Source: Nitrosopumilaceae archaeon (GTDB lineage Archaea > Thermoproteota > Nitrososphaeria > Nitrososphaerales > Nitrosopumilaceae). From it: 64,000 nt of DNA. A program made the position numbers and the translations under genes. Below the pieces are notes generated by a model that worked only from the letters and a program-made list of their open reading frames with translations, searched no databases and had not been told where the DNA came from. Shown here piece after piece: positions 18,680 to 48,754 of this stretch; position 1 is the stretch's first letter; each line of letters starts with the position of its first letter. The stretch is taken from assembly GCA_965203465.1 (NCBI GenBank), contig CBDBCR010000003.1, positions 320,001-384,000 of the forward strand, written 5' to 3'.

Positions 18680-18848
18680 CTGCACGCGCCTTTTGCTGTA
18701 CCTGCAGGCGCCTTTGCTACGACCTGCTGTACCTGCAGGCGCCTTTTTGCTGTGCTTGCGGGCGCCTTTTCAAATTCCTGCTGTACCTGCAGGTGCCTTT
18801 TTGCTGTGCTTGCGGGCGCCTTTTTGCTGTACCTGCAGGCGCCTTTGG
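18680..18848. repeat. Iteron-like array of ~22-bp repeats
   Basis: TGCTGTACCTGCAGG(C/T)GCCTTT x4 interleaved with TGCTGTGCTTGCGGGCGCCTTTT x2. Confidence 0.85.
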
Positions 18849-19476: not shown

Positions 19477-19543
19477 ACAAATGAATCCAAATCGCCAGCA
19501 GAGACACACGCTTCGTCGAACCCAATCCTGTTGAATCGCTAGA

Positions 19544-25376: not shown

Positions 25377-26947
25377 TCCCAAACATCCTCCCAGTTGCTG
25401 AACGCATCCACCACGCTGCCGAATCCTGGCAGCGTTATATCTGTCACGGTCACTACAGAGCAGTATTTGGAGCCACCCACACGGGGGCCACGTATGGCCC
25501 TGCCTACCATCTGGCTGTACAGCACTAGCGACTTGGTGGGCCTGGCGATGACCACCGCGGTGGTGCGGGGGGCGTCGAACCCGGTGGTCAGAACCCCATA
25601 GTTGCATATGATCCGAGGCTCCCCGCCGTCCTCCTTGTACTGGTCGATTATCTGATCCCGCACGTCCCGGGGCGTGCCCGCATCTACGTAAAAAGCTCGG
25701 TGTCCGCGCGTGTGCAGTATGAGGGAGAGATCGCGCGCGTGGGAGATGCTTGCGGCAAAGACGATTATGCGCCGGTGCTTGCTTCTGATCAACTCTTCGA
25801 CTTGATCAACTATTTTCACGTTGCGAATCTCATCTCTTGCAAGTTTCACCAGTACGTCCTCAGGTATTTCCAGTGCCTTTTCTATACGCGTCTTGTCGGC
25901 TTCTGACAAGTGACCGTTGTGCGATATCTGTTTGATACGCGCTTTCGCTATAAAGCCATCTTTGATCAGGAACTTTACCGGATGCATGCCCACATCCAAG
26001 GTAACTTTTGTCTTGTTGAAAAACTCAGCAAGCGCCTCGTCGGCCCCCACGTCGCTCCACGTTCTTCCAGGGGTGGCGCTCAGACCCATCAATCCCGCGC
26101 CGTGTTTTTCTACAAGATAGCTTAGGATGAATTGGTACGTCTCGGCCACCGCTTGGTGCGCCTCGTCTATGATCACCAGCGACACCCTGTCTGCCAGCGT
26201 GGTCAAAAACAGATCTTTCTTCTGCGCTGTCTTGTACATTTTGCCCAGTCCCGCCACGATGAGGCCAGTTTTGCAGTTGGGAGACAAGAGATCCGGAGAA
26301 TGGGATCCAAAGAACCGATGTATTGGAACCGCCTTGTTGCCTGCGTGTAGCCAGGCAGCCTTAAATTCTTCTATGGCCTGTTCGCACAGCTCTTCGCTGT
26401 ATGCCATCCAGATCACCAAGGCGGTGCGATCCTTCAAGAACAGGTCTGCTACCACCCTCATTGCGGTCCTGGTCTTGCCGGCGCCGGTGGGCATGTGGAG
26501 CAGCACGCGCGCCTCCGGTTCTTGCAGTATGCGTTCGATCTTTTCGATGGCCACGATCTGGTGGTCGAAGAGTGGCCGGGCCACCGCCGCCGCGTCGGAG
26601 CTAGGCGGCTTTGATGGAACCGTGTACTCTGACCATTCTGCGTCAAAGAACCGAAAGAGCGCCTTTTCTTTATCAGAGTTTTTTCTGAATGATTGCCTAG
26701 TGACAGCGGCATATTCGTCTTGGTCTTCTATGTCCAGAATTTTGGCAAGCCTCGTCATGGAGTTGCGCCCAAGGCTCATCAACAGAGCGTGGCGCATTTT
26801 TCTGTCTCGCAACATCTCGGTTCGCGACACCTTGTCAATCACCAGCTTTAGGAGATTTTCCGGGTTGACAGATGCGGGATCGAGTGCCTTGAGCACGTCC
26901 ATGCAGGCGCGGCTCAAAAACACGTTCTGGAGCTTGTCGGTTCCCAT
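25373..26947 (-). CDS. SF2 (DEAH) helicase, ResIII-like
   Basis: MPTGAGKT, IIDEAHQA, LSATPGR, LTTGFDAP, QMVGRAIRG; start 26947 or TTG 26974. Confidence 0.92.
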   Translation of the reverse strand: MGTDKLQNVFLSRACMDVLKALDPASVNPENLLKLVIDKVSRTEMLRDRKMRHALLMSLGRNSMTRLAKILDIEDQDEYAAVTRQSFRKNSDKEKALFRFFDAEWSEYTVPSKPPSSDAAAVARPLFDHQIVAIEKIERILQEPEARVLLHMPTGAGKTRTAMRVVADLFLKDRTALVIWMAYSEELCEQAIEEFKAAWLHAGNKAVPIHRFFGSHSPDLLSPNCKTGLIVAGLGKMYKTAQKKDLFLTTLADRVSLVIIDEAHQAVAETYQFILSYLVEKHGAGLMGLSATPGRTWSDVGADEALAEFFNKTKVTLDVGMHPVKFLIKDGFIAKARIKQISHNGHLSEADKTRIEKALEIPEDVLVKLARDEIRNVKIVDQVEELIRSKHRRIIVFAASISHARDLSLILHTRGHRAFYVDAGTPRDVRDQIIDQYKEDGGEPRIICNYGVLTTGFDAPRTTAVVIARPTKSLVLYSQMVGRAIRGPRVGGSKYCSVVTVTDITLPGFGSVVDAFSNWEDVWE

Positions 26948-26985
26948 GTTGCGTAGAGCCCGTTCAACCTCCAAACTGCCCGCCC

Positions 26986-27813
26986 CTACAAATGACACAT
27001 CGTGCACGGAGTCGACTCCTCGTCCTCGTCCAAAGCTTCGTCCAGCACTTGGACCAGCGGCAGGTTGGCGCGCTTGGCCTTTGCGCGTTTTTTGCCCTCT
27101 TCGTGTCTTTCCATTATCTCGTCGCGCCTTGCCAGCAGCTGCGGCAGCGTCTCGCCGGGCGACCACGTGTACTGCCTTCCCCGCATGGCGTTGGACTCGA
27201 ACGAGACGCCCGCGTCCTTTAGCATCTTGTTCTCGATGGCGACGGCCTTTTCGAACAGATCCGGGTGCTTGTCGGCAAGCCCCACCCACTCGGCCTTGCG
27301 CTGAAAGAAGCAGAAATAGCACCCAGAGCGCGTCCTCCACGAATAGTATTCGGGCAGATCCAAGCCGGCCTCGCGCAGTATCCCCATCACGCCGTCGTGG
27401 TCTATTCCGTCGTCGACGAACGGAAACTCGGCCCGGATGTTGGGCTTTGTAGATACGTACCCCTTGCGATTGCTCTCGTCCGCGCGTATGGCCACGTACG
27501 AGACCACGTCGTCCTCTCCGACCCAGTCCTCCAGCGGCTTTATCTTTAGGTGGGTGGTGCACCAGCGCATCTGCGGCGACGGTAGGGCGCCCCTGAACAC
27601 CTCGAAATAGTGGTCGAACCCGCGCGTCGAGTTGAGCCGGTTTATCGGCTTGCCCAAGACGACTTCGAGTTTTTGTAGGTACGCGTACGTCTCTGGAAGC
27701 TCGGCCCCCGTGTCGCAGAAAAAATACTCCATGTCCGGAACCCGATCGCGCATATATACAGCCAAGGCGCTAGAATCCTTGCCGCCGGAGATCCCGCAGA
27801 TGTGCCTCGGCAT
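26986..27813 (-). CDS. sspD: PAPS reductase-family protein, SspD-like
   Basis: SGGKDSS, RWCTTHLK, RSGCYFC, C-terminal CxxC; context with desulfurase and DUF4007. Confidence 0.8.
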   Translation of the reverse strand: MPRHICGISGGKDSSALAVYMRDRVPDMEYFFCDTGAELPETYAYLQKLEVVLGKPINRLNSTRGFDHYFEVFRGALPSPQMRWCTTHLKIKPLEDWVGEDDVVSYVAIRADESNRKGYVSTKPNIRAEFPFVDDGIDHDGVMGILREAGLDLPEYYSWRTRSGCYFCFFQRKAEWVGLADKHPDLFEKAVAIENKMLKDAGVSFESNAMRGRQYTWSPGETLPQLLARRDEIMERHEEGKKRAKAKRANLPLVQVLDEALDEDEESTPCTMCHL

Positions 27814-27872
27814 GGCGCAAAAGTACGGTACCCGGTTTATAAGTATGGCGAGGATCTCTAGCCGTCGGAATT

Positions 27873-28079
27873 CTACTTTAACTTGGCGGCCAAGCTTTCG
27901 AACTCTTTCTTGGTGACGGTCAGGGAGAACAGCAGTCGATCGGGATCTTTGGCGCCTTCTTTCATCGGGTAGAACTTGATGGTATAGGCGTTGCCGACCT
28001 TGGCGATCTCGTACGGCCTAGCGCCCACTTTTTCACGCACGCCTGCTTGTCTCGGTAGTTCTTTATAAAGATGAATCAT
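27873..28079 (-). CDS. Small hypothetical protein (start possibly GTG 28040)
   Basis: Natural composition; TTTATAA at ~28062-28068. Confidence 0.55.
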   Translation of the reverse strand: MIHLYKELPRQAGVREKVGARPYEIAKVGNAYTIKFYPMKEGAKDPDRLLFSLTVTKKEFESLAAKLK

Positions 28080-28114
28080 AGAGTATTTATTTTAGTAGCC
28101 TGACACTCTAGTCA

Positions 28115-28178
28115 CCGTAGCCCGAATCCTGGGGCTGATACGGGATGTATCGGCGATCCTGGGCTCATGTGGGTACGG
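28115..28178. repeat. Dispersed ~65-bp palindromic repeat, copy C (inside the element)
   Basis: Close match to 10070-10136 in the same orientation. Confidence 0.85.
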
Positions 28179-28180
28179 CT

Positions 28181-28759
28181 TCATTTTCTCTTGAGTCGTC
28201 TTGCTATTTCGTCCACGCGATCGACTGAAATCACGCCATCCGGCTCTATGCCACGGTGGTTCGCCCAAGCTACCGCGTCTGCTAGGGTGTGCGCGTAGCT
28301 AGGCGTGGTAGAGCGCAGTCCAATATCCGCCACGAACCCCCGGCTGTCCGTGTCGGACTCTACAACCATAGACGTCAAGGCGTATCCGTTGCCGCTCAGG
28401 AACGCTTCCAGCGGATCGCGCACGGATGCGAAATGGAGATTGTGGTACCTGCGTATGATTTTGTTTAGGGCCGGGTTGGACCCCCTGCCCAGTACTAACC
28501 GCGGTGTCAGTTTTTCGAGCGTGGCGCCTCTTTCCAGCCTTATACAAAACCCAGCGTATTGCCGCATGTCAAAGTTTATCTCGTTCAATACCACGTTGCG
28601 CACATCCTGCTTTCTTGATGTCAGATCCAGGCCGTGCCGCTCGAGCATCTTGGCCATCCTGTCTGCGCCTTCTTGCGTGCATGCTGCTACGCCCATGTGC
28701 CCGTGGTTGCCCGACCCCGGAGTTCCTGAAACATCCACACCCATAAACAACATGCTCAC
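28181..28759 (-). CDS. Hypothetical protein, possible RNase H-fold (DUF3800-like)
   Basis: N-terminal GVDVSG and C-terminal LADAVAW; overlaps stop of the large ATPase. Confidence 0.6.
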   Translation of the reverse strand: MSMLFMGVDVSGTPGSGNHGHMGVAACTQEGADRMAKMLERHGLDLTSRKQDVRNVVLNEINFDMRQYAGFCIRLERGATLEKLTPRLVLGRGSNPALNKIIRRYHNLHFASVRDPLEAFLSGNGYALTSMVVESDTDSRGFVADIGLRSTTPSYAHTLADAVAWANHRGIEPDGVISVDRVDEIARRLKRK

Positions 28760-31700
28760 TCTTCCGACTTGTGTATAAGCAACGCCGCTAGTGCCCGCAG
28801 ATCTTTGGGCGAGAACCCGCCACCTTTCATGTCCCGAGCGACTTTGTCGGCTACTCTTTCCATGGTTTTTTTCTGTTGTGCGGGCATGCTTACCACGTCG
28901 CGCTCCGTCCGCCCGTCCCGGTGCACCACGGTGACTTGGAACGAAGGCCTAGCGTACATTCCGGACACGTCTGCAAAGTGCAGTGCGCCCAGTTGCGTGA
29001 ACCTGTCGCGCATGTCGGCCAAATTTTCCTTGAACGCGCGCCGATCCCCGTCCGTCCAGTCCGCGGGCGGAACTTCGGTCAGGCACATGGCCACGTACTT
29101 TATCCACTCGTCGTCTTTGAGCGTGTCGGCGGCCAGCGCGGTCAGAAACGCCCTAGTCCGGCGGTCGGCGGCGTGTTCCAGCAGGGCGGCCGCAGATTTT
29201 GACAGCTTGTCCCTGTCGCCTGCCTCCATCTCGTCTAGCAGCGCGGTCCGCAGATCCTGCAGCATGCGGGTGAACGCCGACTCTAGTACATTGACGGCGC
29301 TGCCCAGCCTGAGCGCGAATTCGTCCAGCCTGGCCTCCGCCCTGGCGCCGCGCACATGGCCAAGCCCTAGCGCCGCCGGCAGCGACTCGAACAGGAGCGT
29401 GTCGGGCTCTGTCGCCCTGCTTATGGCTTCGCGTACCGCGGACGCGTCTTTTCCTACGGTGTCAGTTTCCTTGACGCACTTGGGCAACGAATTGACCGTC
29501 CTGACCAGCCTGGACACGACGTCTAGTATATCGAGCCTGCCGGATCCGGCCTTGCCCGTCTGTAGCTCGCGCGCGATGCGCTCTAGCGCGGGCCTGTTGG
29601 CCTTGGCGCTTCCCACGTGCTTTACCTCAAAGAGGTCTGGGTTTTTGACCATGCGCTCTAGCGACTCTGCGGTGACCGTCGGGCAGTACGTGCCGTGCTC
29701 GTAGAGGGCGATGGAGTCGCGGTTGGCCAGGATCAGCGCAGTGAGCAGCACCGGCATGATGCCGGCCCTTGCGCCGAACGGCGGCGAGGCGGCCTCCGAG
29801 TAGATCTCGGAGACACGCACCCGTCCCCCGCGTTCCTTGATCATCAAATGCATGCGGTTCCACATTTTCGCTACGAGGCCGCGCGGGGGGTAAAGTCCGA
29901 CCTTTGCGTTCTTGCCGCGGTGTATGCCGGTTCTGCCAAGCAGGGCCTCGTATATGGCACGCTCTGGCCCCCATCCCTCTATTCCCAACCTGGGCGCCCC
30001 GCTGTTTTTGACCATGGCCCCCAAGAGCTTGTTCACGGCCGATGTTCCCTGCGGCGAGACGACGTTGCGGTTTACTATAACGTTGAACACGAGCGGCGCG
30101 TCGGGGTACGCGTCGTCGCACGCTTTGGAGGCAGCCTCGCCAGCGCTGTTCTGCTTGGCAGGCTTGCCGGGTTTTCCCGCGCGGTGCCACTTGGCGCCCT
30201 TGCCGAACGCCGCATCAAACCCGCGCACCATGGCCGACTCTGCGGCCTCTAGCCTCTCGTTGAGCTCCTTGCGCGCCACCCAGTCGACGGTGATCTCCGG
30301 CTTGCTCTCCAACACATCTCGTATGGACGCTGCCTCGATCGCGGCCGCGCGCAATGGCCCCAGGTCGGCTGCCTCTACCGCAAGCACCGGGCGCCTAGGC
30401 GGCGATTCGCTGCGCTCCGGCTTGCCCGTGACGTACGTAATGGCTCCGTCACGCCCTTCAGGCTCTGCCCACTCGCCTTGGCCCCGATCCGCAAAGCGCC
30501 TCTCGAACACCCGGACAGTCCCCGTCTTGCGTGAATGCCGGGCAGCTACGACCGGATCCAGCGGCATGAACTTGTTGAGCATGTCTGCCAGCGGCGCGTC
30601 AGACCAGCGCGTACGCGCAGTCTCCAGGGCCGCCCTTATGTCGGTGTCCGATCCGTGCCAGATCCTGTACTCGTCGGCGTGCCGGCGGTACGTCACGATC
30701 GACTTTTTCTCAAGCACCTGCAAAGCCGCGTCGGACGAGCCGCCCGTCGCGTACCGGACCATGCTGCGAGACGCGCGGAGCCTGCCAGACTTGCCCAGCA
30801 GGTTCAACACCCCGATCGCCTTTAGCGCGCGCGATTCCTCTTCGGACAGACCGCGCGCGTCGCGTATTATGGTGGACACCTCCATCAGCCTAGAGACGTT
30901 GGACGAGGAGGCGTGTGCGAGCGCGGAGCCTGCCACAAAGTAGTCGTACAGTACGTCTAGGCCCACCGCTGGCAGCTCGCCCAGTCCGTCCCAGTCTTTT
31001 TCGTCTATGAACCTGGCAACCGTGTGGGACCCGCCGCCAGCGACAAAGGACAGCAGCGTCCGCTCGTTCTGCCCGTACCGGGAGCACATTTCGGGCAGCA
31101 CCTCTAGGACGAGCGGGTGGAGCGGGTAGCACGATGACAGCAGGCCCTCGCTTATGTCTTGGCCCAATCCTGCATTTCGTGCTTTCTCTGCTTGATCCTT
31201 GGCCCATGCGTCGATCGCTTCCCGGTACTCTTTTTTGACGTGATCTGTTTCGGCGGGCTTTAGCGCGCCGGCCACTAGAAGGCGCGCCTGTTCCGGGGAG
31301 TTTGAGAACGGCAGATCGTCAAAGCGGCCCTGTACTTTGGACCATTCTCGCCGTTGCGCCGTCGACACACCGGTGGCGTACTCTTCGAATGCCATGTGTT
31401 GGAGCGTCACGATAAAGAGCGGGATCCTCTCCGATCCTCCAGCCAGCTCCGCCATGGCCTGCAGTAGGAACAGATCGCCTTCCCCGCGCTGCTCGTCGGT
31501 AAAGTATTCTATGTTCTTGCCAAACTCGTCTACGATTACTAGTATAGGCGCCTTGGCACACATGCCTCGTATCACGTTCAGGATGGATGCGGTGTTGGGC
31601 ATCTTGCCCCCGTCCAGCCCGTTCTTCATACTCTTGAGTGCGTCGGCGCCGTCAAAGGCCCACCTGCGCCGGCCGAAATACCGGCGCGCGCCGTCTTCTA

Positions 31701-32178
31701 GCGCACGCACAATTGTGGCCGCGACCGGCTCGCGACTTGCCGTGACGGTGCAACGTAACAGTCCATTTTTGTGCGCGTTCAAATCTTTACGAGTGTTGTG
31801 CACAGAAGACGCCAGTTCGGGCACCGCGTCGCGCAGGATGCCGTGGGCCTTTTTCCATTCAGCGCTGTTGCCGGGCGCGTACAGCGCGTCCAAGAACACG
31901 GCCATAGTTGACTTGCCGGAGCCGTACGGCCCGGTCACCGATATGGCGCGGCCGTGCTTGCCGCCCCGCATCCCCAGATCCAGCCTTGCGATCGCGTCGA
32001 ACGTGCCTGGCCCCGGTATGTATCCACGCAGGGCTTCCGAACCCCGATCGTGTTCAGCGTTGACAGCGGCGTATTTTTTGAGCGACAGAGTCGCCATCCA
32101 AGAGAGATGAACCCTCTCCACCCGGATGTTCTTGGAATCTGCCGTTCTCGATCTAGCGGCCTTTGCCCGTCTAGTCAT
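28756..32178 (-). CDS. sspC: Large P-loop ATPase, SspC-like
   Basis: TGPYGSGKS, IVDEFGK, EWSKVQGRF, CYPLHP, YGQNERTL; ATGA overlap with the DUF4007 gene. Confidence 0.8.
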   Translation of the reverse strand: MTRRAKAARSRTADSKNIRVERVHLSWMATLSLKKYAAVNAEHDRGSEALRGYIPGPGTFDAIARLDLGMRGGKHGRAISVTGPYGSGKSTMAVFLDALYAPGNSAEWKKAHGILRDAVPELASSVHNTRKDLNAHKNGLLRCTVTASREPVAATIVRALEDGARRYFGRRRWAFDGADALKSMKNGLDGGKMPNTASILNVIRGMCAKAPILVIVDEFGKNIEYFTDEQRGEGDLFLLQAMAELAGGSERIPLFIVTLQHMAFEEYATGVSTAQRREWSKVQGRFDDLPFSNSPEQARLLVAGALKPAETDHVKKEYREAIDAWAKDQAEKARNAGLGQDISEGLLSSCYPLHPLVLEVLPEMCSRYGQNERTLLSFVAGGGSHTVARFIDEKDWDGLGELPAVGLDVLYDYFVAGSALAHASSSNVSRLMEVSTIIRDARGLSEEESRALKAIGVLNLLGKSGRLRASRSMVRYATGGSSDAALQVLEKKSIVTYRRHADEYRIWHGSDTDIRAALETARTRWSDAPLADMLNKFMPLDPVVAARHSRKTGTVRVFERRFADRGQGEWAEPEGRDGAITYVTGKPERSESPPRRPVLAVEAADLGPLRAAAIEAASIRDVLESKPEITVDWVARKELNERLEAAESAMVRGFDAAFGKGAKWHRAGKPGKPAKQNSAGEAASKACDDAYPDAPLVFNVIVNRNVVSPQGTSAVNKLLGAMVKNSGAPRLGIEGWGPERAIYEALLGRTGIHRGKNAKVGLYPPRGLVAKMWNRMHLMIKERGGRVRVSEIYSEAASPPFGARAGIMPVLLTALILANRDSIALYEHGTYCPTVTAESLERMVKNPDLFEVKHVGSAKANRPALERIARELQTGKAGSGRLDILDVVSRLVRTVNSLPKCVKETDTVGKDASAVREAISRATEPDTLLFESLPAALGLGHVRGARAEARLDEFALRLGSAVNVLESAFTRMLQDLRTALLDEMEAGDRDKLSKSAAALLEHAADRRTRAFLTALAADTLKDDEWIKYVAMCLTEVPPADWTDGDRRAFKENLADMRDRFTQLGALHFADVSGMYARPSFQVTVVHRDGRTERDVVSMPAQQKKTMERVADKVARDMKGGGFSPKDLRALAALLIHKSEE

Positions 32179-33119
32179 GCAAGAGCCTCCTCGGTTCGGC
32201 GCGTGCCCGGCGCTCTGCGGCCGTACGCTGCGTACAGCACTTGGAACGCGGCGTCTCGCGCGCTGCCTTTGAACGTCATGTTGGGCATGCCGTTGGCGTG
32301 GCTTACCGAGACGGCGCCGCACGCACCGGCCGCCTCGGACAACATTTCTGCCATGTCCGTCTCGCTCAGCTTGAACGCTGTTCCGGGCCCGCCGTTTTCG
32401 AGGGCAAGTCTGTTGATCGATATGGTGCGCCCCGGGATCTCCGCCCTGTCCACAAAGTCCAGGCACGCGTACGCCACGACTAGGGGCGAGAGGCCGGGTT
32501 TCCTGCCCGAGACGAACCGCACGTCCCCGTCCTTCCGCCTCAGCAATCCGAGCGTCCTGAGCGGGCAGTCTAGATAATCCTCCGTCTGTTCTTTGTCTTT
32601 TTTGGACAGGTACGTATGCAGGAACACGTCGGTGTCGCGTTTTACAGAATGCTTGCTTGGCTTCCACCCGTCGACGGCATACACCGTCGACTCTGCCTCT
32701 TCCAAAAGATCCGCCGCAGAATAGACCCCGGTGCCGGCTCCGTTCATTATGGCCCACCACGTGGGAAGGTAGCACGGCGGCGCCAGCAGCGACCAGTGCA
32801 TCAACCATACAGTCTCTGGCCTGTCAAGATCTGGATCGAGGCCGCCGTGGTCATGGAATATGGCTTTCCCCAGAACCGTGGGCGCTGCCCGGGCCTTTCT
32901 GGCACCGGTTCCGTTCTCCAAAACTTTGGCCGCCAAGGCCCAGAACCTCATGGACCGCACCATGTTCTTGCCCACGCCTAGTACTACAGGCGCGTCGTCG
33001 CGCGAGAACACGTCCCGATCGTCTGAGGCATGATCGTATGCCTGCTTTAGCCAGCCGTACCTTGGGTGGAACGTCTCGTGGCGCCCAAACATCTGACGAG
33101 CAGAGTCTTCTAGGCGCAT
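32175..33119 (-). CDS. sspB: DUF4007 protein, SspB-like
   Basis: FGRHETFHPRYGWLK, LGVGKNMVRSMRFW, WLMHW, PLRTLGLL. Confidence 0.85.
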   Translation of the reverse strand: MRLEDSARQMFGRHETFHPRYGWLKQAYDHASDDRDVFSRDDAPVVLGVGKNMVRSMRFWALAAKVLENGTGARKARAAPTVLGKAIFHDHGGLDPDLDRPETVWLMHWSLLAPPCYLPTWWAIMNGAGTGVYSAADLLEEAESTVYAVDGWKPSKHSVKRDTDVFLHTYLSKKDKEQTEDYLDCPLRTLGLLRRKDGDVRFVSGRKPGLSPLVVAYACLDFVDRAEIPGRTISINRLALENGGPGTAFKLSETDMAEMLSEAAGACGAVSVSHANGMPNMTFKGSARDAAFQVLYAAYGRRAPGTRRTEEALA

Positions 33120-33215
33120 GTATTGGATCCTCCCGCAACTCGATTCGAACACGCGGAGTCTTGTGGCAAAACGGACAGCTTGGCCAGGCTTCCATTTGCC
33201 GCACTTGAGAGCATG

Positions 33216-35147
33216 TTAAGCACCCCGATACCCGTGTTTGCGTAGATGTTGATCGTGGTGGCTGAGCGACCGAGTTTTCAATGCCAAGTCGCAGAGTCTG
33301 TTCTCCCGTTCTTCCAGCACATCTGCGGTCCATTCGCCATATTGGTTTAGATATTGCTCGTTGAGCTTGATGTCGGAGCTGCCGTATCCTCGCGGATCTT
33401 GCAGTTTTTCTGCGAAACGCTTTGCTCCCATGCCGCGGTTCCATTTTCTTGGCAAGAGCGTGAGGTTGCCCAGGCGATTCTTGTACTTGTTTATGTCCTC
33501 GTCCTCGGGGTTTTCGCCAAGGAATGCCGAATCGTCCCACTTTTGGTGGTTTTTGGGCAGTATGTGTTCCAACTCGAACGCGTGTTTTGGATACGGGTGG
33601 GGCTTTTCACGGTTCAGGTATATTTCCATTGACAAGAGGATGTATTTGGCGGCCTTGGGGGTAAGCTTGAACATTTTACCCTTAAAATTTTCTGCGAACT
33701 TGGCTTCGGCAATACGCGGAAGCGGGGTACCGGCTACATCCTCGTTTACCAATATCAGGTATATCATTTCTGACAAGCTGGCGTCGCCCTCTAGTTTTTT
33801 TGTGACCCTATTGGCGATAGATCTGACATCTTCTGCGGTTCCATCGTTGATGAATTTGAACTTGAAGAAAAACGTCAAGAGGCAGTCCGCCAAAGTCTGA
33901 AATTCGTAGCTGCCCAAGCTCCATTTCCGGCCAGCTGCGAGCATGGGAACCCGTATGTATCTGGCGCCGAGAAGCTGCATCAGGTAAAAAATACTCTGGG
34001 TTTTTTCGTACTTTTCGTCCTCTGGCAGATCCTCCGGGTAATCCATCTGCTTGACAATTTTGGCGTCTTCGTTGAGGTGCTCTATGTATCTCTCTGCTTC
34101 TTTCGCATTCCTTACCGCAGACTCGACTATCTCGTACAAGTTTTCTGTAGTTATGGGTTTGTCGTTGTAGCGACCCGACGGATGCCGAGAAGATGTGGAT
34201 TCGTATAGGAACCGGTCGTGATCTTCCAAGCGTTCGTCGAATATCTCGCGCCACCGACGTTCCATTCTCTCATGGGCGCCTTGAGACTTTGTGGTGCTGA
34301 GCAGGTGGGATTTTATCAGGTCTGCATCCATTAGCTTTTGTCCTTGAGAGTTAAAGGTGGCGAATATCTTGTAGGCGCTGTACCTGTTGTAAACTACGAT
34401 GAACGCAAAGTGGTTACGCTTTACCAAGTTTTGGGATATGTGTCTAGACAATTCGTTAGCCGCCTCTGAAAACTCATCGGGTTTCTTGTTGTCGAAAGAT
34501 TTATCCAACTTTGCGAGCATTTTTTCCGCCCGTTCGGACAACACGCGGTAGTTGTTTATGAGTAGCGCGTTAGAATCAAGTATTCTTTTTTTGCTGTTCT
34601 TGTACTTGACTAGCAGATCTCTGCACCGGCCTACGTAATCGTGCGTATCTGTGGACATAATATCCCGAAACAGAACAGAATCGTCGTTTCCCAGTTCGAT
34701 TCGTGGCTCTCCTGGCTTTATGTTCAGTATGTTGTCGATGGTGGCCACCGCGTTATCTAGCGCAGGGCGCGTGCCGGGCAGCTCGTTGCCCTTGAATTTG
34801 TATAGACACGAGCGAATAGCGCACAGTATCAGCGCGATGGTGGCTAGTCGCTGCTGTCCGTCGACCACTTCGAACTTTGGCGAGCCGCTTTCTTGTGGAA
34901 CGACGACCATAGCTCCGAGCAGGTTGGTTGAACTAGGCGAGCCGCTAGGCGCTTCTGCCGTCTTTGCTATATCCTCGAACAGCCGTACGGCGTTATCGAC
35001 GTCCCACGAGTAACTTCTCTGATAAGACGGGATTTTGTATGCGTGGATTTCGTCCAACAGGCTACCGATCGACCTGCGGTGTACCTCATAATCCTCGTAA
35101 GACACGTCAAAAGCACCCGGATAGTTCTTTAAATGTTTTAAGTCCAA
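33216..35147 (-). CDS. DUF262 + DUF1524/HNH protein (SspE/GmrSD-like)
   Basis: IPSYQRSYSW, VVDGQQRLAT, FATFNSQG, LEHILP, RLGNLTLL...N; noticeably lower GC. Confidence 0.88.
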   Translation of the reverse strand: MDLKHLKNYPGAFDVSYEDYEVHRRSIGSLLDEIHAYKIPSYQRSYSWDVDNAVRLFEDIAKTAEAPSGSPSSTNLLGAMVVVPQESGSPKFEVVDGQQRLATIALILCAIRSCLYKFKGNELPGTRPALDNAVATIDNILNIKPGEPRIELGNDDSVLFRDIMSTDTHDYVGRCRDLLVKYKNSKKRILDSNALLINNYRVLSERAEKMLAKLDKSFDNKKPDEFSEAANELSRHISQNLVKRNHFAFIVVYNRYSAYKIFATFNSQGQKLMDADLIKSHLLSTTKSQGAHERMERRWREIFDERLEDHDRFLYESTSSRHPSGRYNDKPITTENLYEIVESAVRNAKEAERYIEHLNEDAKIVKQMDYPEDLPEDEKYEKTQSIFYLMQLLGARYIRVPMLAAGRKWSLGSYEFQTLADCLLTFFFKFKFINDGTAEDVRSIANRVTKKLEGDASLSEMIYLILVNEDVAGTPLPRIAEAKFAENFKGKMFKLTPKAAKYILLSMEIYLNREKPHPYPKHAFELEHILPKNHQKWDDSAFLGENPEDEDINKYKNRLGNLTLLPRKWNRGMGAKRFAEKLQDPRGYGSSDIKLNEQYLNQYGEWTADVLEERENRLCDLALKTRSLSHHDQHLRKHGYRGA

Positions 35148-35258
35148 TGCGGTGTGTCAGTGGGCCTGAATCCAATAGTTCGCCTGTACGAGCGCGGTAT
35201 GCGAAGTTGCGCGAGCGCTGATTTGCTGCAACGCGGCCGGCGCGATCGCCGTCTGAGG

Positions 35259-36416
35259 TCATTGCCCTGCCACCTCCACCGTCTTGCCCCGCACAAATCT
35301 GGCCGCGTTCGTCAATTCGGCTACGGCCAGATCTACGTCGCTTTGTTCTGTAGGAACGCCCAGCGACACGCGCACCGACTCGTCGGCCGCGTCCCTGCCG
35401 AGACCCATGGCGGTCAGCACGTGGGACGGCTCCATCGCAGACGACGAGCATGCGCTGACCGACGAGATCTCTATCCTGCGCGCGTTGACAATGACCGCAT
35501 CGGCTATGGCGCCTTCTATCCGGACGTTGGACGTGTTTGGCAGCCTCGGCGCCCCGCCCCCGTTGACAGAGACGCCGCCAAGCTCCGAGACAAGGCGCCT
35601 CTCCATCCCGTCTCGCATGGCCGCGTGCTCGCCGGCCTTGTTCGCCATGACCGGCACCACGTGCTCGCACGCGGCGGCCATGCCGAGTATTCCTGGCACG
35701 TTGAGCGTGCCGCTGCGCATGCCCCTCTCCTGGCCCCCGCCGTGGATCTGGGCCCTTAGCATCTTGCGCGCCTCTTTGTTGGCCACCAGGGCACCGCATC
35801 CCTTGGGGCCGTATATCTTGTGGGCGCTGAACGTGGCTATGTCCACTCCCGCCCTGCCTGCATCGAACGGCACCTTGCCTACAGCCTGGGTGGCGTCGCT
35901 GTGGAGCAGGGCCCCGTGCCTGTGAACCAGCTCGGCTATATCCTCTATGGGCTGCACGACCCCCGTCTCGCTGTTGGCCGCCCCGACCGAAACCAAGTCC
36001 GTCCGGTCGTCCATACGGGCTTCCAGATCGGCCAGGTCCACCAGCCCGTCGGCGCCGACCGGCAGCACGTCAGCCTTGAGCCCGAAATTCCCCATGGCCG
36101 CGCACGGGTTGATCACGGACTTGTGCTCCGTAGAGCAGTAGAGAGCCCGGCGCTCGCGCCCTGGATCGAGCCCGAGCGAGGCAAAGACTACGTTGTTGGC
36201 CTCGGTCGCGCCGGACATGAACACGACGTCGGACTGCCTCATGCCGACCGCGGCGGCCACTCTCTGGCGCGCCCCTTCGACCGCATCCATAGCGTCCTGG
36301 CCGGACTCGTGGACACTGGCAGGGTTGCCGAAGTTTTCGGCCAACGCGGGCATCATCGCCTCTACGACTACACCTGCCGCAGGGGTCGTGGCGTTGTAGT
36401 CTAGGTACACCGGCAT
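35259..36416 (-). CDS. Cysteine desulfurase (IscS/DndA/SspA-like)
   Basis: YLDYNATTP, FGNPAS, GATEANN, FSAHKIYGPKG, RSGT, SACSS. Confidence 0.95.
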   Translation of the reverse strand: MPVYLDYNATTPAAGVVVEAMMPALAENFGNPASVHESGQDAMDAVEGARQRVAAAVGMRQSDVVFMSGATEANNVVFASLGLDPGRERRALYCSTEHKSVINPCAAMGNFGLKADVLPVGADGLVDLADLEARMDDRTDLVSVGAANSETGVVQPIEDIAELVHRHGALLHSDATQAVGKVPFDAGRAGVDIATFSAHKIYGPKGCGALVANKEARKMLRAQIHGGGQERGMRSGTLNVPGILGMAAACEHVVPVMANKAGEHAAMRDGMERRLVSELGGVSVNGGGAPRLPNTSNVRIEGAIADAVIVNARRIEISSVSACSSSAMEPSHVLTAMGLGRDAADESVRVSLGVPTEQSDVDLAVAELTNAARFVRGKTVEVAGQ

Positions 36417-36613
36417 GGTGTGGCCCCCAACCCGCTCTGATTTAAACTTGGCCGGCCGATCGGCCGGAGGCGCGCGATCGCGTCCACGGCGCTGGAAAAC
36501 CCCCGTCCGGGCGCCGCGTTTTGATAAAAAAATTTTTGTCTGTCACTGTATGGCAAGGCCGCCAAAAAGCGCCCCGGCGCGACTTTTGCGCGCGGTTTCA
36601 CGCGCGATCCCGG

Positions 36614-36630
36614 GCAAAAGCTATATAATA
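36614..36630 (+). promoter_or_regulatory. Outward-facing BRE/TATA-like motif at the element right end
   Basis: GCAAAAGC-TATATAA-TA directly before the CGCGCAG core; no plus-strand gene follows in the integrated state. Confidence 0.6.
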
Positions 36631-37627
36631 CGCGCAGTTTGGACCTTATGGAAAAGCTCCGGTACACGTGCGGCCGGAACTCGCGCTCGAGCAGGTTGCG
36701 GCTCCCGTACATGACGTGCGGGTTCTGCGCCGAGCCCGGGTGCCTCGCGTCCTCCACCGTGATCGGCAGGGGCGGCGAATAGAGCACGCTGTTCATGTCC
36801 GACCACAGCTTTTTGGCGATGTGGTTTTTCGGTATGTCGTAGTCGAACATCTTGACCATGCACCCGTCCTCCAGCCGCCCGCCGCCGGGCAGGATCTCCA
36901 GCGGGCCGCCCGGGACGGTGCAGATGCGCCCGTCCGGCCCCACAAAGTACTCGTACCACGTCGTCTTGTCGTCGTCCGAGGCGTTGGGCGTCTCGCGCAC
37001 CAGCGTAAACCCCCACTCGGAGCCGGGCGCCAGTTCCGCGCTGCGCCGCGCCGCGATCAGCTGGTAGCCCCGCTCGCCGCAGAACGGCAGCACGCCGGTT
37101 CCGCCCATGTTGTACTTGCCCTGCACGAACTTTATCCTCTTTTTGTTGCCCTTTTGGAGCGAGAGCAGCGTGGTCTCGAACTTTTCCGGCTCCTGCCCCT
37201 CGCCCCTGTCGGCCACGACTATGTTGGGGCTCGAGGTTTTCGCGCCGTCCGCCATCACGCGCACGTTCTGCGCCAGTTTCAGCATCTTTGGCCCGTCCAG
37301 TTTCGAAATGTCGCCGCCGGGCACGCCCATGTACCTCTCGAGCGCCTCGGCCATGCTAGACGGGGCGCCGCGGCCCGCCGGCCTGTCCCCCGCCATCAGG
37401 CAGTGCTTTATGAGCACGTGGTCGATGGAGTTGACCGGCTTTTCGCACAGGGAATTGACCGGCGAGGACTGCTGGTTTGAGACTATGGCGTAGTTGTTCT
37501 CGGTGCCGCCAAGCGGCTTCCACCCGGCGTCCCTGAAAAAGGGGCCGCCCAGTATCCGGTCCACGTCCCTTTCGCCCTGCGCCCGGGCCAGCGAGAGCAG
37601 CGCGTCGCGCCCGCTCACCTGCGCCAT
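36631..37627 (-). pseudogene. 5' half of the interrupted GHKL/HSP90-like ATPase gene
   Basis: EKPVNSID, ADRGEGQ, QGKYNMGGTG motifs; protein-like sequence ends at SKLR, then runs into element DNA. Confidence 0.8.
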
Positions 37628-44024: not shown

Positions 44025-46322
44025 ATACGGGAAAAGGCGTGGAACCCGGGCCTCGAAAAGGCCGTGCTCGAAAAGTGGCGCAAAGAGGGCACGTACAGGT
44101 TCGAGCCGGGGGCGAAAAACTACACCATAGACACCCCGCCGCCGTACCCGTCGGGCAGGCCCTGGCACATCGGGGCCGCGGCGCACTACGCCCAGATAGA
44201 CATGATAGCGAGGACCGCCCGCATGTCCGGCAAGAACGTGTACTTTCCGGTGGGCATCGACCGCAACGGCCTGCCCGTAGAGCTGTACACCGAAAAGAAG
44301 CACGGCATACGCATGCAGGAGACCGAGAGGGGCAGGTTCTTGGAGCTGTGCAGGGAGGCGCTAGACGACCTGGAGGAAGAGATGATACTGACGATGAGGA
44401 ACCTCGGCCTGAGCGGGGATCTGGACGGGCACTACCGCACCGACTCCAGAGAGTACCGGGCCCTCACGCAGGCCACGTTCATAAGACTGTGGAAGGACAA
44501 GAGGGTGTACTCTGCCACGCGGCCCACCAACTACGACTGGGTCTCGGGCACCACGATAGCCGACGCCGAGATATCCTACCTCGAGCTGCCCTCCAAGCTT
44601 GTCCACATGAGGTTCGAGCACGAGGGGGGCAGCGTCACGGTGGCCAGCACCAGGCCGGAGCTGCTCTGCGCGTGCAGGGCCGTCATCGTCAACCCCGAGG
44701 ACGAGAGGTACTCTGGCGCGGTGGGGCGCGCCGTCAGGGTCCCGCTCACGGGAGCCGAGGTCCCCGTGCGCGCGCACAGCTCGGCAAAACGGGACTTTGG
44801 ATCCGGCGCCGTGATGATATGCAGCTACGGCGACCAGCACGACGTGGCCCTGTTCCGCGAGATGGGCCTGGAGGAGGTGCGCGCCGTCGGCACCGACGGC
44901 AGGATGACGGACGCGGCCGGCAAGTACTCGGGGATGCGCCCCAAAAAGGCCAGGGAGGCCGTCATCGCCGACCTGGAGGAGGCCGGCCTCGTGGAAAAGA
45001 CGGAGCAGATAACCCACCGCACGCCCGTCTCGGAGAGGACAAAGACGCCCGTCGAGATAGTGCCCCTCGAAGAGTACTATGTCAGGCAGACCGACCGCGT
45101 AGAGCAGATGCGCTCCGTCTCCGATCTGGTATCGTTCTTCCCCGAGAGGCACAGGCAGATACTGCACAACTGGCTGGACTCGATAGCCATAGACTGGCCC
45201 GTCTCGAGGCGCAGGTACTACGGCACCGAGATACCCGTCTGGTACTGCACGGGGTGCGGCGAGCCGCACGTGCCCGAGCCTGGGAGGTACTACCAGCCCT
45301 GGAGGGAAGAGTGCCCGGCGGAAAGGTGCCCCGAATGCGGCGGCTCGGAGTTCCGCGGCGAGGAGCGCACGTTCGACACGTGGATGGATTCGAGCGTCTC
45401 GCCCCTCTTCGTTTCCAGGTACGGCGTGGACGAGGAGTTTTTCAGGGCCACGTACCCCGCCTCGCTGCGCCCCCAGGCCAAGGACATCGTGCGCACGTGG
45501 CTTTACTACACGCTGCTGCGCTGCACCGAGCTTACCGGCCGCGTCCCGTGGTCGGAGGCGTGGATAATGGGGTACGGCCTCGACGAGCGCGGGCTCAAGA
45601 TGAGCAAGAGCCGCGGCAACGCCATCGACCCCCTGCCGCTGATAGAGAAGATGGGCGCCGACACGTTCCGCTTCTGGAGCGCAGGCGAGATAGGCCACGG
45701 CTCGGACTTTAGGTGCAACGAGCAAAAGATAGAGTCCACCAAAAAGTTCCTCAGCAAGCTGTGGAACGTGGCGCGCCTGGTCTCGGGCTTCGAGCGGCGC
45801 GGCCCCGGCGAGTTGCAGGACGCGGACAGGTGGATACTGGCCGAGCTGGACCGCCTGGTGGCCGAGTGCAGGAAGGGGTATTCAGAGTACAACTTTTTCG
45901 TGCCGGCCGTGGCCGTGCGCGAGTTCGTCTGGAACGTGTTCGCGGCCCACTACCTAGAGATGGTCAAAAAGCGCGCGTACGGCGAGGGCTCCGAAGGGGG
46001 GCGCGACGCGGCCGTCGAGACTATGCACCGCGTGCTCTCCGCGGTGCTAAAGCTGCTCGCCCCCATCGCCCCGTTCATAACCGAGCACCTCTGGCAAGAG
46101 CTGTACTCTGACGGCGAAAGCGTGCACCTGCAAGAGCTGCCCTCGCCGTCGGGCAACCCCGGCCCCCCGGTCTCGGGAGAGCGCATCTACGCGTTCAACT
46201 CGTCTGTGTGGAACGCCAAAAAGGAGCGCGGCCTGTCCCTCAAGGACCGGATAGACGTGGAGGTGCCCCACGAGCTCCGGGGCGTGGCGGCGGACCTGCG
46301 CGCCATGCACAACCTGCCATGA
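44025..46322 (+). CDS. valS: Valyl-tRNA synthetase (start codon unclear)
   Basis: IDTPPPYPSG, HIGA, DWPVSRRRYYG, KMSKS. Confidence 0.95.
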   Translation: MREKAWNPGLEKAVLEKWRKEGTYRFEPGAKNYTIDTPPPYPSGRPWHIGAAAHYAQIDMIARTARMSGKNVYFPVGIDRNGLPVELYTEKKHGIRMQETERGRFLELCREALDDLEEEMILTMRNLGLSGDLDGHYRTDSREYRALTQATFIRLWKDKRVYSATRPTNYDWVSGTTIADAEISYLELPSKLVHMRFEHEGGSVTVASTRPELLCACRAVIVNPEDERYSGAVGRAVRVPLTGAEVPVRAHSSAKRDFGSGAVMICSYGDQHDVALFREMGLEEVRAVGTDGRMTDAAGKYSGMRPKKAREAVIADLEEAGLVEKTEQITHRTPVSERTKTPVEIVPLEEYYVRQTDRVEQMRSVSDLVSFFPERHRQILHNWLDSIAIDWPVSRRRYYGTEIPVWYCTGCGEPHVPEPGRYYQPWREECPAERCPECGGSEFRGEERTFDTWMDSSVSPLFVSRYGVDEEFFRATYPASLRPQAKDIVRTWLYYTLLRCTELTGRVPWSEAWIMGYGLDERGLKMSKSRGNAIDPLPLIEKMGADTFRFWSAGEIGHGSDFRCNEQKIESTKKFLSKLWNVARLVSGFERRGPGELQDADRWILAELDRLVAECRKGYSEYNFFVPAVAVREFVWNVFAAHYLEMVKKRAYGEGSEGGRDAAVETMHRVLSAVLKLLAPIAPFITEHLWQELYSDGESVHLQELPSPSGNPGPPVSGERIYAFNSSVWNAKKERGLSLKDRIDVEVPHELRGVAADLRAMHNLP

Positions 46323-47095
46323 CCGACGCGCGCTCCATAAAGGCGAGGTTCGCGGCCGCCTACGGGGGCAGCGCCCACCTGCGCGAGGCCGTGCCCCACG
46401 AGTATCCGGGCGCGCCGGCCGGCCGCCTGGAGATGCTCCACGAGTTCGCGCGCGCCTCGCCCATCTACCACAACTCGTTCGCGATGGATCTTGGCGTGCC
46501 CTGCACCGCCTACGAGGGCGACATCAGCGGGCACTGGATAGACAGCACAAAGCACGACGCGAGCGCCCAGCCGTTCTACCCCACCTGGATCCTCTCGGCG
46601 TACCTCGCGGCCGCCGAGGCCGCGCGCCTCGGCGCGCGCCAGTCCGTCGACGTGGGATCGGGCGACGGCAGGGTGGCCTACGCGTGCGCGCTGGCCGGCA
46701 TGGAGTCGCACGGCGTGGAGCTGGACCCAGGGCTGTGCGCCCTGCAAAAGTCCGTCTCGGAGGGCACCGGCGTGGGGTTCGGCGTGCACTGCGCCGACGC
46801 GGCCTCGTTCGACTATTCGGCGCTGGGCCTGCGCCGGCCGGCCGTGTTCATAGGCGGGCTGCCGCAGATGGGGGAGGGCCTGGCCGAGGCCGTCGTGGAG
46901 TCGGTCCTCGGCCTCGGGCTGGACCGCCCCGTGTTCGTGCTGATGGGCAGCCGCGAGCGCAGGGCCCTGGGCCCGGGCGGCTCGTGGGACGGCCTCTTGG
47001 AAAAGGCCGGGCTGGCGGCAAAGTCAGTCCTGGAGCTTCCCACGTCGTGGACCATGGACAGGGCGCGCGACACCCCGTACATCTACGCCTACTAG
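46319..47095 (+). CDS. SAM-dependent methyltransferase-like protein
   Basis: VDVGSGDGRVA, GVELDP; ATGA overlap with valS. Confidence 0.78.
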   Translation: MTDARSIKARFAAAYGGSAHLREAVPHEYPGAPAGRLEMLHEFARASPIYHNSFAMDLGVPCTAYEGDISGHWIDSTKHDASAQPFYPTWILSAYLAAAEAARLGARQSVDVGSGDGRVAYACALAGMESHGVELDPGLCALQKSVSEGTGVGFGVHCADAASFDYSALGLRRPAVFIGGLPQMGEGLAEAVVESVLGLGLDRPVFVLMGSRERRALGPGGSWDGLLEKAGLAAKSVLELPTSWTMDRARDTPYIYAY

Positions 47096-47700
47096 GTGCC
47101 GTGTATCGAATCGCCGTACGTGCCCTCTATGGACGAGCTCGACACGTCCGGCATGGGCGACTGGAGGCGCGCGACGGTCACGCCCAGCTTTAGCTTTTTG
47201 CACCCGTCTATGATTGCGCGCTCCTGGTGGACCTGGTCGTACCCGAGCGCGATTATCTGCGGCCGTATGCGCGCGACGGTCCTGAATATGTCCTCGTCGT
47301 CGCCGACCACGGCCGCGTCGGCCAGCCGGAGGGCCCCCACCAGATCGCGCCGCTGCTCCTGGCTGTGCAGCGGCCTGCGGCGCTTCATCTTGACGGCCGT
47401 CTTGTCGGTGGCGATGACGACCACCAGCACGTCGCCTAGGCCGGCCGCCTCGCGGAGCGTGTGTATGTGGCCGGGGTGTATGATGTCGAACACGCCGCCT
47501 GCCAGGACAACCTTGATCTTTGAGGAGCCCTTTTCGGTCGGCCGCCTGTCGGGGCCAACGAGGCCGTCGCGCGCCATGTACACGAGCCTCTCGCGCACGC
47601 CGTCGGCGTCGGGCATCGCGCGCAGCGCCGGCTCGGGATCGCGCCCCTCAAGTGCCGCCACGTACAGGCGCGCCAGTATCCGCCTGTCCGTAGAGTCCAC
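47092..47700 (-). CDS. ribL: FAD synthetase / cytidylyltransferase family
   Basis: GGVFDIIHPGH, PQIIALGYDQ, SSSSI. Confidence 0.8.
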   Translation of the reverse strand: MDSTDRRILARLYVAALEGRDPEPALRAMPDADGVRERLVYMARDGLVGPDRRPTEKGSSKIKVVLAGGVFDIIHPGHIHTLREAAGLGDVLVVVIATDKTAVKMKRRRPLHSQEQRRDLVGALRLADAAVVGDDEDIFRTVARIRPQIIALGYDQVHQERAIIDGCKKLKLGVTVARLQSPMPDVSSSSIEGTYGDSIHGT

Positions 47701-47788
47701 GCGCAGCGCCAGCCGGCCCCGTTTGATTAACCCATCGGGCCGCGCGCAGGGCCCCCGCCGAAGCGCGCAAAAATAAGTGGTTTGGGGA

Positions 47789-48124
47789 CTAGCCCCTTCC
47801 CATCGCGGCGTACTTGCCGGAGCGCGACCTTATGAAGAACGCTGCCGCTATGCCCCCGAAGATAGCCCCGGATATGATGGACGCGCCCACGACGCCGTTG
47901 GCGTCAAGGTACGGCGTGCCCGAACCGGTCTCTGGGTTTTCCATCGCGAGCGTGACGCGCCTGCTCTGAAGCTCTAGGGCCTCTTCGAGCGTGTTTTGCC
48001 CCGTCTCTCCCTGCGAGCCGACGTTGCCGAGGTACTGCGCGTGCGCGACCCCCGCAAAGCCCATGCTCGCCGCCAGCGTGGCGGCCACCAAGCCGCCAAG
48101 CAGTACAGATCTGGTCATAGCCAT
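47789..48124 (-). CDS. Small membrane protein (signal peptide plus C-terminal TM helix)
   Basis: Two hydrophobic segments; TTAAAT upstream. Confidence 0.75.
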   Translation of the reverse strand: MAMTRSVLLGGLVAATLAASMGFAGVAHAQYLGNVGSQGETGQNTLEEALELQSRRVTLAMENPETGSGTPYLDANGVVGASIISGAIFGGIAAAFFIRSRSGKYAAMGRG

Positions 48125-48234
48125 CGGGCCGGATCCCGGCCGGCTCCTATTTAACCCTTGGGCAGATCAGGCCCGATCGCGCGGGGCCGCGCCCCGATCC
48201 CAAGGTTTAATTCGGCAGATCGGGGCGCGCGCGC

Positions 48235-48753: not shown

Positions 48754-48754
48754 C

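Follow-up and report, generated by a model that had tools for sequence, protein, structure and literature searches.

We analysed a 25.1-kb integrated element and the way in which the promoter of its integrase gene appears to be divided between the two ends of the element. It lies in a 64-kb stretch of DNA (the window; G000:C3:320001-384000) from an archaeal genome of 2.26 Mb (4 contigs, 63-67% G+C), which its relatives assign to a family with genome sizes of 1.1-2.7 Mb. Sequencing runs containing the stretch include sponge and marine metagenomes. The element interrupts a minus-strand host gene, as follows (positions are those of the window).

10280-11512, minus strand: C-terminal half of the host gene, collinear with the intact homologue P0004 from ...LRGFGTNRIDV on
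11506-11512, plus strand: attL core CGCGCAG, 7 bp; the same heptamer stands at 36631-36637, and empty-site contigs join exactly here
11513-36637: integrated element, 25.1 kb, carrying an integrase, a TraG/VirD4-like ATPase, and SspABCD and GmrSD-type defence cargo
36631-36637, plus strand: attR core CGCGCAG, read from the sequence and from run contigs
36638-37618, minus strand: N-terminal half of the host gene, to which P0004 aligns from its first residue to ...FSIRSKLR

The host gene encodes a 737-aa product of uncharacterised function, with a weak HATPase_c_3 match in the N-terminal half. The core is in frame (Leu-Arg) in both halves: the N-terminal half stops at ...SKLR (36638), and the C-terminal half restarts with (LR)GFGTN... 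at 11512. P0004, a metagenome protein of 737 aa that is 99% identical, is uninterrupted across the join (...FSIRSKLRGFGTNRIDV..., including SKLRGFGTN). The empty site itself was found on a contig of run X3 (720 nt, depth 261) and one of run X9 (3905 nt, depth 19.5) covering 36631-37300, both of which carry one core copy and run leftwards into the exact 23-30 letters preceding 11506. Both states of the site are present in X3, which has a contig of the occupied form as well (35900-36660, depth 88.6). Contigs of X8 break at 36636/36641, at ~3x depth. Because of the intact homologue and the empty-site contigs, we take the element to be 11513-36637, a precise insertion with a 7-bp core. A direct-repeat search of 10500-38000 with a 10-nt seed did not recover the att pair, the core being only 7 bp, and no tRNA gene was found within the 64-kb window. 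The host-gene family comprises uncharacterised proteins of ~730-830 aa (1316 matches at E <= 1e-3, in archaea and bacteria). Its N-terminal half had no homologue in the 40 related genomes searched, so that the host gene may itself be accessory; the protein had no PADLOC match.

The only Pfam family that the integrase matched at E <= 0.01 was PF00589 (Phage_integrase), and that weakly (E = 4e-4, 20.6 bits versus a cut-off of 27.1, residues 244-335); it is therefore not a member of PF16795, the family of the "suicidal" integrases named in PMC8371274. The match to NCBIfam XerA_Arch was also weak (E = 4.6e-4, 19.8 bits versus a cut-off of 220). A profile of 19 family members matched the XerA-like recombinase structure 4a8e (E = 0.0034), and R180, H293-x-x-R296 and G318-H319 align with the corresponding XerA motifs. 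Six residues (R180, H293, R296, H319, Y327 and Y330) are invariant in 19/19 aligned members, with both tyrosines as candidates for the nucleophile. There was no PHROG match, phmmer found nothing in the PDB, and a scan of IMG/VR found no relative. The attP site lies outside the open reading frame (ORF) and the 435-codon frame is open when the element is integrated, as in classical (type II, pNOB8-like) integrases; with its ORF intact, the gene does not have the form of the SSV type (type I). Three copies in this genome (L005, L006 and L008) are N-terminal fragments, of differing lengths (161, 125 and 35 aa), and a genome search found no orphan C-terminal integrase parts.

The features that concern integrase expression are distributed over both ends of the element.

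11513-11527, plus strand: left-end spacer from the core to the first GTG, CGC + AGACCCGC + TTTA, at which homology among paralogues begins
11528-11543, plus strand: 16-nt block GTGCCTTATCAGGAAC, identical in 7/7 integrase copies, holding the first in-frame GTG and a degenerate box, CCTTATCA
11528-12835, plus strand: integrase ORF, 435 aa from GTG 11528; an alternative start, GTG 11561, is residue 12
36443-36449, minus strand: TTTAAAT box of the sspA-like gene (ATG at 36416, 33 nt downstream of the box); weight-matrix score 12.4 bits
36582-36621, plus strand: conserved right-arm block, from an alignment of three right ends, ending in the A-tract CAAAAGC (36615-36621), which resembles a B recognition element (BRE)
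36622-36630, plus strand: outward-facing TATA box TATATAA-TA (TATATAA at 36622-36628, TA at 36629-36630)

An earlier note on this DNA had proposed that excision builds the integrase promoter by bringing the right-end TATA box upstream of the integrase start. Read directly from the sequence, the geometry it described holds in every particular. The first in-frame start of the integrase, GTG 11528-11530, stands 15 nt inside the left end, i.e., 15 nt after the end of the core. Upstream of this codon in the integrated form there is no A/T run of six or more, and its weight-matrix score in the chromosomal context is -15.0 bits. The right end reads CAAAAGC-TATATAA-TA, followed by the core CGCGCAG. 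When the two ends are joined, the TATA box comes to lie at -31..-25 of GTG 11528 (7 + 2 + 7 + 15 = 31). Within the left-end spacer, AGACCCGC matches the 3' acceptor end of tRNA-Lys, and in the L004 copy it is the genuine 3' end of a tRNA-Lys(ctt). With a TTTAAAT promoter of its own, the sspA-like gene has no need of the TATATAA, which lies 206 nt away.

Just upstream of the right-end TATA, the run contigs differ from the window: one G is inserted after 36611 in X1 and X8, and one A after 36612 in X9 and after 36613 in X3. The G-run and A-tract at this point are either variable in length or mis-assembled in the window. The TATA-to-core spacing is unaltered in X3, the listed differences of which all lie elsewhere.

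The distance between TATA box and start codon in this genome was calibrated on 2223 ORFs with coding-type G+C content at third codon positions (GC3), by recording the positions of A/T runs of six or more upstream of 20,956 candidate starts in their 5' parts. The starts of these runs form a single peak, with 92, 156, 195 and 127 at 28, 29, 30 and 31 nt before the start codons, versus ~20-50 elsewhere. The consensus of the 547 genes in the peak is A-rich at -35..-33 and T/A at -30..-24, with a G+C-rich spacer after it and C at -1; these genes start with GTG (281), ATG (148) or TTG (118). The genome is largely leaderless; with a single sharp peak, the distance from TATA box to start codon is therefore usable as a ruler. 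Two native genes of the window that the earlier note had offered as examples fit it, with TTTATA at 43185, 30 nt before ATG 43215 (10.2 bits), and TTTATA at 56808, 30 nt before GTG 56838 (9.7 bits).

Sites were scored with a weight matrix spanning -38..-21, which was trained on sites chosen for their A/T run and hence measures likeness and gives no independent probability. The joined site scored 11.2 bits, versus a native median of 8.8, and exceeded 86% of the 547 native (training) sites. Only 1.5e-4 of 400,000 random genome positions scored as high at the same registration, and the optimum lay within 1 nt. The joined form, and only that form, has the native pattern of an A/T run from -31 and AAAA at -37..-34. 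Over both strands, the 2.26-Mb genome has 113 occurrences of TATATAW. Scored for BRE plus TATA, the outward strand was higher than the inward strand at 3/3 right ends of this kind (13.4 versus 9.3 in the window; 12.2 versus 7.7 and 11.5 versus 10.4 in the other two). The split promoter geometry is thus confirmed as an observation, and it is far from chance.

The genome carries 7 copies or fragments of the integrase (L001-L006 and L008), ~80% identical, and homology among them begins at window positions 11513-11519, within ~20 nt upstream of GTGCCTTATCAGGAAC. L004 begins 6 nt after tRNA-Lys(ctt), and a 14-nt repeat of the tRNA-Lys 3' end is found 76.5 kb downstream of it, preceded by CAAAGGG-TATATATA-CC. 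L002, L005 and L008 each lie 10 nt after the stop codon of a large surface-protein paralogue; uninterrupted paralogues end ...CGSGCAG-GAC-stop, so that the core CGSGCAG is as in the window. On both strands of the whole genome, the pattern CAAA-N2-3-TATATAW has 3 matches, all of them right ends of integrase elements. One belongs to the element in the window, one to the tRNA-Lys element(s) (C3:911635) and one to a surface-protein-gene element (C1:810687), the last reading CAAAGAC-TATATATA-CGGGCAG and then GAC-TAG. A blastn search of the genome with the right end (36200-36700) had returned no paralogue because the shared block is too short, and it was the motif search that recovered the block. 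The three right ends have only their last ~50 nt in common, and this stretch closes with the A-tract and TATATAWA, immediately next to the core. Inward of the TATA there is no conserved gene.

In joined form the tRNA-Lys and surface-protein elements score 8.5 and 10.0 bits, respectively, and the A/T run is at -31 in 3/3. This spacing is kept despite differences in the 18-19 nt between box and start codon, since two elements have a CGSGCAG-type core and one a tRNA-Lys-type core, and the AGMCCSGC box is shifted by 5 nt. A search for the same geometry at related integrase loci, which the earlier note had suggested as a check, was thus positive for all three elements with a defined right end.

At the left ends, L002 and L008 have the host Ile codon ATC changed to ATA, so that an ATAAA stands 28 nt upstream of their integrase GTG (5.4 and 6.4 bits); L005 retains ATC (-6.4 bits). 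The 20-nt left-end block had no match outside its own genome in the genome-contig collection, which possibly leaves near-identical genomes outside it; the 16-nt block had at least 118 chance matches in unrelated bacteria and was uninformative. Two other repeats were considered as attR and rejected: the 11-nt repeat TAGACCCGCCC, 15.7 kb inside the L004 element, for which ~1.4 chance matches are expected by estimate and which has no right-end module, and, on the same grounds, a 12-nt repeat 32 kb from L002. Inward products of the right-end TATA were likewise discarded. A small ORF of 66 codons (GC3 0.67) is confined to the window and is lacking at the other two right ends, and a small RNA found no support in Rfam (no match) or in folding, which was no better than that of shuffled sequence (z = 0.47).

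Some further observations were made at these loci. A degenerate 3' half of a CRISPR repeat (20/24 by eye; C3:930908-930935) abuts the left junction of L003, where a right-end module would be expected. A CRISPR-like array lies at C4:45125-48944 (repeat GCTTCAATGGGGCCGCAACTTGATAGTTGCGGAAG, period ~72 nt), and a 14-nt word of its repeat occurs 55 times on C4, nearly always within 45125-48944 and once at 34483. A second tRNA-Lys (ttt; C3:820750-820836) is followed by a decayed left-end relic, CATTTAGTGGCTTACC..., which suggests an old integration there. At least 10 large surface-protein paralogues end ...ATC-AAC-GSG-CAG-GAC-stop (sites include C1:670690-670730, C3:509276-509320 and C3:403420-403460), and three carry an integrase 10 nt past the replaced stop.

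These results probably reflect a circle-gated integrase promoter, comparable to Pcirc of ICEclc. The ancestral arrangement of the family would have been classical, with the core in the 3' end of a tRNA gene, then a TATA box, then a leaderless integrase gene, and in the high-G+C lineage the TATA beside the integrase would have degenerated. The right end would bear an outward-facing core promoter, consisting of an A-rich BRE-like tract, a 2-nt spacer and TATATAA, and abutting the 7-bp core. In the integrated state this putative promoter and the integrase are 25 kb apart, with nothing promoter-like before the gene; in an excised or incoming circle the TATA would stand 31 nt before the first GTG and give strong integrase transcription. 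Because the TATA is at the transcription-start spacing of the genome, the circle should transcribe the integrase strongly. The consensus BRE/TATA lies directly beside the core on the opposite arm, so only joining of the ends would put it at the service of the integrase. Transcription is predicted to start at 11526-11530, and the mRNA would be either leaderless from GTG 11528, adding 11 residues, or provided with a 33-nt leader before GTG 11561; the promoter argument is independent of the choice of start codon. Some weak expression, whether the element is integrated or circular, may come from the degenerate ancestral TATA just within the left end. When integrated in the window, the right-end box points into the antisense strand of a dead half of the host gene, which it may transcribe, as the earlier note proposed; at the usual targets the tRNA-Lys or surface-protein gene reads toward the integrase and could supply read-through. 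The element boundaries, the geometry, the native promoter spacing and its recurrence in 3/3 elements are observed; transcription in the circle, its strength, the start codon used and the purpose, which would be to favour integration of the free circle, are inferred.

The wider integrase family was examined at 109 loci, 29 from 301 genomes of the family and 80 on metagenome contigs, with 42-58% identity and genomes of 30-50% G+C. Three of the loci (L012, L016 and L032) belong to genomes flagged as unpublished and underlie none of the claims. Of the 80 metagenome contigs (L039-L118), 59 stop 300 nt or less before the integrase match, although 3000 nt of upstream sequence had been requested; assembly seems to break off at the tRNA/att site beside this family. 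Relatives have a conserved box, CTTAAAATAG, and then GRCSCAC between tRNA and start, and 41 A/T runs start at 29-31 nt. One subgroup reads TTTAGTG-ACTAAAATAG-N20-ATG and the window TTTAGTG-CCTTATCAGG-N20-GTG(11561), with the same 30-nt spacing. By this alignment with the TATA-N20-start of relatives, GTG 11528 would fall in what is their promoter spacer, and the old TATA would have decayed to CCTTATCA. In three AT-rich relatives attR was found through a repeated tRNA end, and in a fourth no tRNA-end repeat was found. The core-proximal right arm of the three is not TATA-like and they keep a TATA beside the integrase, consistent with the promoter having moved across the core in the lineage of the window.

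In L237-L243 (genomes G216, G137 and G014), the attP arms look like inverted repeats around the tRNA core, the partners being GCGTCC-ATTTT... in the right arm and ...AAAATA-GGACGC in the left arm. Given that partner, the gene-side TATA-like box of relatives may also serve as a recombinase-binding site.

Several observations weigh against a circle-gated promoter. No contig with the attP (circle) junction was seen among the assembled contigs of X1, X3, X8 and X9, and there was no loose end behind 36637, although contigs drop rare forms, so that a missing attP contig is not evidence of absence. In the full -38..-1 model the joined site scores 7.0, just under the native 25th percentile of 8.0, and the base before GTG 11528 is A, which has a frequency of 0.05 at -1 of native sites. 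The TATA is nearly palindromic, and the inward-strand scores (7.7-10.4) are also in the native range. Because the three right ends are homologous, their agreement represents conservation and not three independent origins; one of them is paired with L002 at a distance of 140 kb, which makes that pairing less certain, and the tandem junction of L004 and L003 lacks the module, reading TTGATAG (+1.4 bits). Other objections concern the start of the gene. Among loci with an in-frame stop, the first start codon of relatives aligns with residue 12 in 45/99 and with residue 10 in 13/99. A same-strand tRNA (Val, Lys, Arg, Pro or Met) ends 35-55 nt upstream of the residue-12 codon in 73 of the 85 loci with sufficient upstream sequence, and L004 has the same family-typical distance, ~40 nt, from tRNA to codon 12. 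Codons 2-11 look non-coding: their GC3 is 0.4-0.5 in 4/4 full-length copies, versus 0.89-0.93 downstream, and a value this low occurs in no more than 0.5% of 10-codon windows elsewhere in the integrase gene. Changes counted by eye in codons 6-11 of 5 distinct copies number ~8 at position 3, 6.5 at position 1 and 3 at position 2, too few to tell coding from non-coding sequence. A and T precede GTG 11528, and C precedes GTG 11561, as at 63% of native starts. GTG 11528 may simply lie inside the old promoter spacer. A weak internal promoter with a downstream start is also possible, since the invariant 16-mer contains a TTATC box like the TTTTATC box of a control integrase of another lineage (L007, beside tRNA-Ala), which lies 29 nt before the ATG and scores 6.2 bits. 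The earlier note had named a downstream start with its own TATA as telling against its proposal, and this is what relatives have, at the position of GTG 11561; in the window the box is degenerate. Its claim that the integrase is expressed mainly from the circle is partly supported: the geometry recurs and nothing promoter-like lies upstream in the integrated copy of the window, but the relatives call the start codon into question.

The evidence on start codons speaks for a classical type II integrase that uses a weak promoter of its own, CCTTATCA (11531-11538), in both states and is translated from GTG 11561, the right-end TATATAA being an outward or bidirectional promoter with another role, or having none: in 58/99 relatives the start is at residue 12 or 10, with an A/T run 29-31 nt upstream, and the spacing, the GC3 break at codon 12 and the invariance of the 16-mer in 7/7 copies are all as it would predict. 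However, with GTG 11561 as the start the internal box reaches only 2.3 bits, less than the native 5th percentile (4.2), and -0.9 in the full model. This reading also leaves unexplained why 3/3 right ends in a genome of 65% G+C keep a consensus BRE/TATA exactly at the core and at a constant 31 nt from the first GTG, whereas the right arms of relatives have no TATA at that position. We consider this alternative unlikely. The A-tract and TATATAWA could instead be a recombination element of attP, i.e., an arm- or core-type site or a bendable A/T segment, with a spacing set by synapse geometry. That the motif abuts the core, as part of a ~50-nt block to which conservation of the right ends is confined, counts for this possibility and against a promoter, and the gene-side A/T box of relatives has an inverted right-arm partner, as expected of recombinase sites. 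Yet the homologous right-arm position in relatives is not confined to A/T even at 32-38% G+C, the motif fits the host BRE/TATA consensus in sequence, orientation and distance, and no inverted partner was seen by eye in the left end of the window. As the whole explanation, a recombination element is improbable; the recombination and promoter roles of the block are not mutually exclusive. The notion of a chance A/T heptamer near the end of an element could appeal to the frequency of TATATAW in the genome and to the occurrence of TATA-like words outside promoters as well, but it is effectively refuted by the rarity of such scores at this registration and by the restriction of the extended motif to three right ends in 2.26 Mb.

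A promoter split across the ends of an element is known in bacteria. In ICEclc of Pseudomonas, an outward-facing promoter, Pcirc, is fused upstream of intB13 and its weak promoter Pint upon excision (reviewed in PMC5812530, which cites Sentchilo et al. 2003). ICEclc has a constitutive promoter at the end opposite the integrase, the circle adds Pcirc to a weaker gene-side promoter, and this is thought to favour reintegration; the arrangement proposed for the window resembles it in these respects. The same geometry, a putative outward promoter of the far end joined upstream of the integrase gene, is seen in 3/3 of our elements. ICEclc differs in being bacterial, with a sigma-70 promoter, a P4-type integrase and an activity proven with reporters, whereas the element of the window has a putative archaeal BRE/TATA 9 nt from the core and a predicted start across the core. 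In IS2 and the IS3 family, Pjunc is assembled from the two abutted ends of the minicircle, the right end contributing one promoter element and the left end the remainder (PMC3219604). As proposed for the joined form described here, this strong promoter exists only when the ends abut, with a fixed spacing at the junction, and drives the recombinase needed for insertion. However, these elements have a DDE transposase, -35/-10 hexamers and a 1-bp junction spacer; the window has a predicted tyrosine recombinase, and an att core (7-14 bp across such elements) separates the TATA from the predicted transcription start and the start codon.

Archaeal integrases have been classed as classical or "suicidal", the latter with attP inside the ORF (PMC8371274). 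The SSV type resembles what is proposed for the window in that integration parts the integrase from something it needs, so that a complete expression unit exists only in the circle; in the SSV type, however, the gene is cut into int(N) and int(C), whereas in the window the ORF is intact and only the promoter would be detached. Thaumarchaeota elements described by Krupovic et al. 2019 (PMC6563490) have att sites down to 8 bp, in tRNA genes or the 3' ends of genes, and share with the window a tyrosine integrase, tandem arrays, conjugation-like ATPases and defence cargo. Their insertions in protein genes are 3'-distal, whereas the copy in the window is mid-gene and antisense. The main text of that paper does not contain the word "promoter" and leaves att-site promoter geometry undiscussed. 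In the SNJ2 integrase operon the promoters lie upstream of orf3, within the virus (PMC5861418). Full-text literature searches, covering the main texts of articles, found no archaeal integrase promoter that depends on circularisation.

We tentatively raise the possibility of a third archaeal arrangement of integrase and att site, in which the crossover falls between the BRE/TATA (attR) and the transcription start with the start codon (attL), so that integration would decapitate the promoter and leave the gene uncut. It would have arisen from a classical tRNA-targeting form that gained a right-arm TATA while its gene-side TATA decayed. At the usual targets, read-through from the host could give a trickle of expression for excision; the mid-gene antisense copy of the window would be locked in. 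By analogy with IHF in lambda, TATA-binding protein bound 9 nt from the core could also bend attP.

The genes of the element other than the integrase, a TraG/VirD4-like ATPase and the defence cargo, are listed below; some of the cargo frames overlap, and the coordinates are those of ORFs, pending proper gene calling.

15188-18289: TraG/VirD4-like ATPase
22150-23520: HNH protein
23607-25607: MzaB-like HATPase
25373-27562: PbeA-like helicase
26986-27813, minus strand: SspD
28756-32808, minus strand: SspC
32175-33152, minus strand: SspB
33216-35147: GmrSD-type nuclease, for which the best PADLOC names are HEC-06/Orf5 and, more weakly, SspE
35259-36416, minus strand: SspA

The minus-strand cargo at 26986-36416 is predicted to be a complete SspABCD phosphorothioation module. 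Tandem repeats occupy 18694-19924, with a 23-nt unit repeated 6 times (18694-18847), a 15-nt unit in 22 registers (19087-19551) and a 51-nt unit repeated 6 times (19517-19924); ORFs in this region had no Pfam match.

If the proposed promoter is real, it would be the first archaeal case found in the searches described in which an integrase is controlled by recombination state through the placement of its promoter. The right ends of such elements in Thaumarchaeota are difficult to locate, given their very short att sites, and the promoter would mark them in a way that can be read from sequence; here a single 14-nt pattern recovered all three right ends in the genome. The arrangement would form a conceptual bridge between the classical and the "suicidal" integrases of archaea, and it would explain how defence islands, here SspABCD, come to be carried on elements that express their integrase only in transit.

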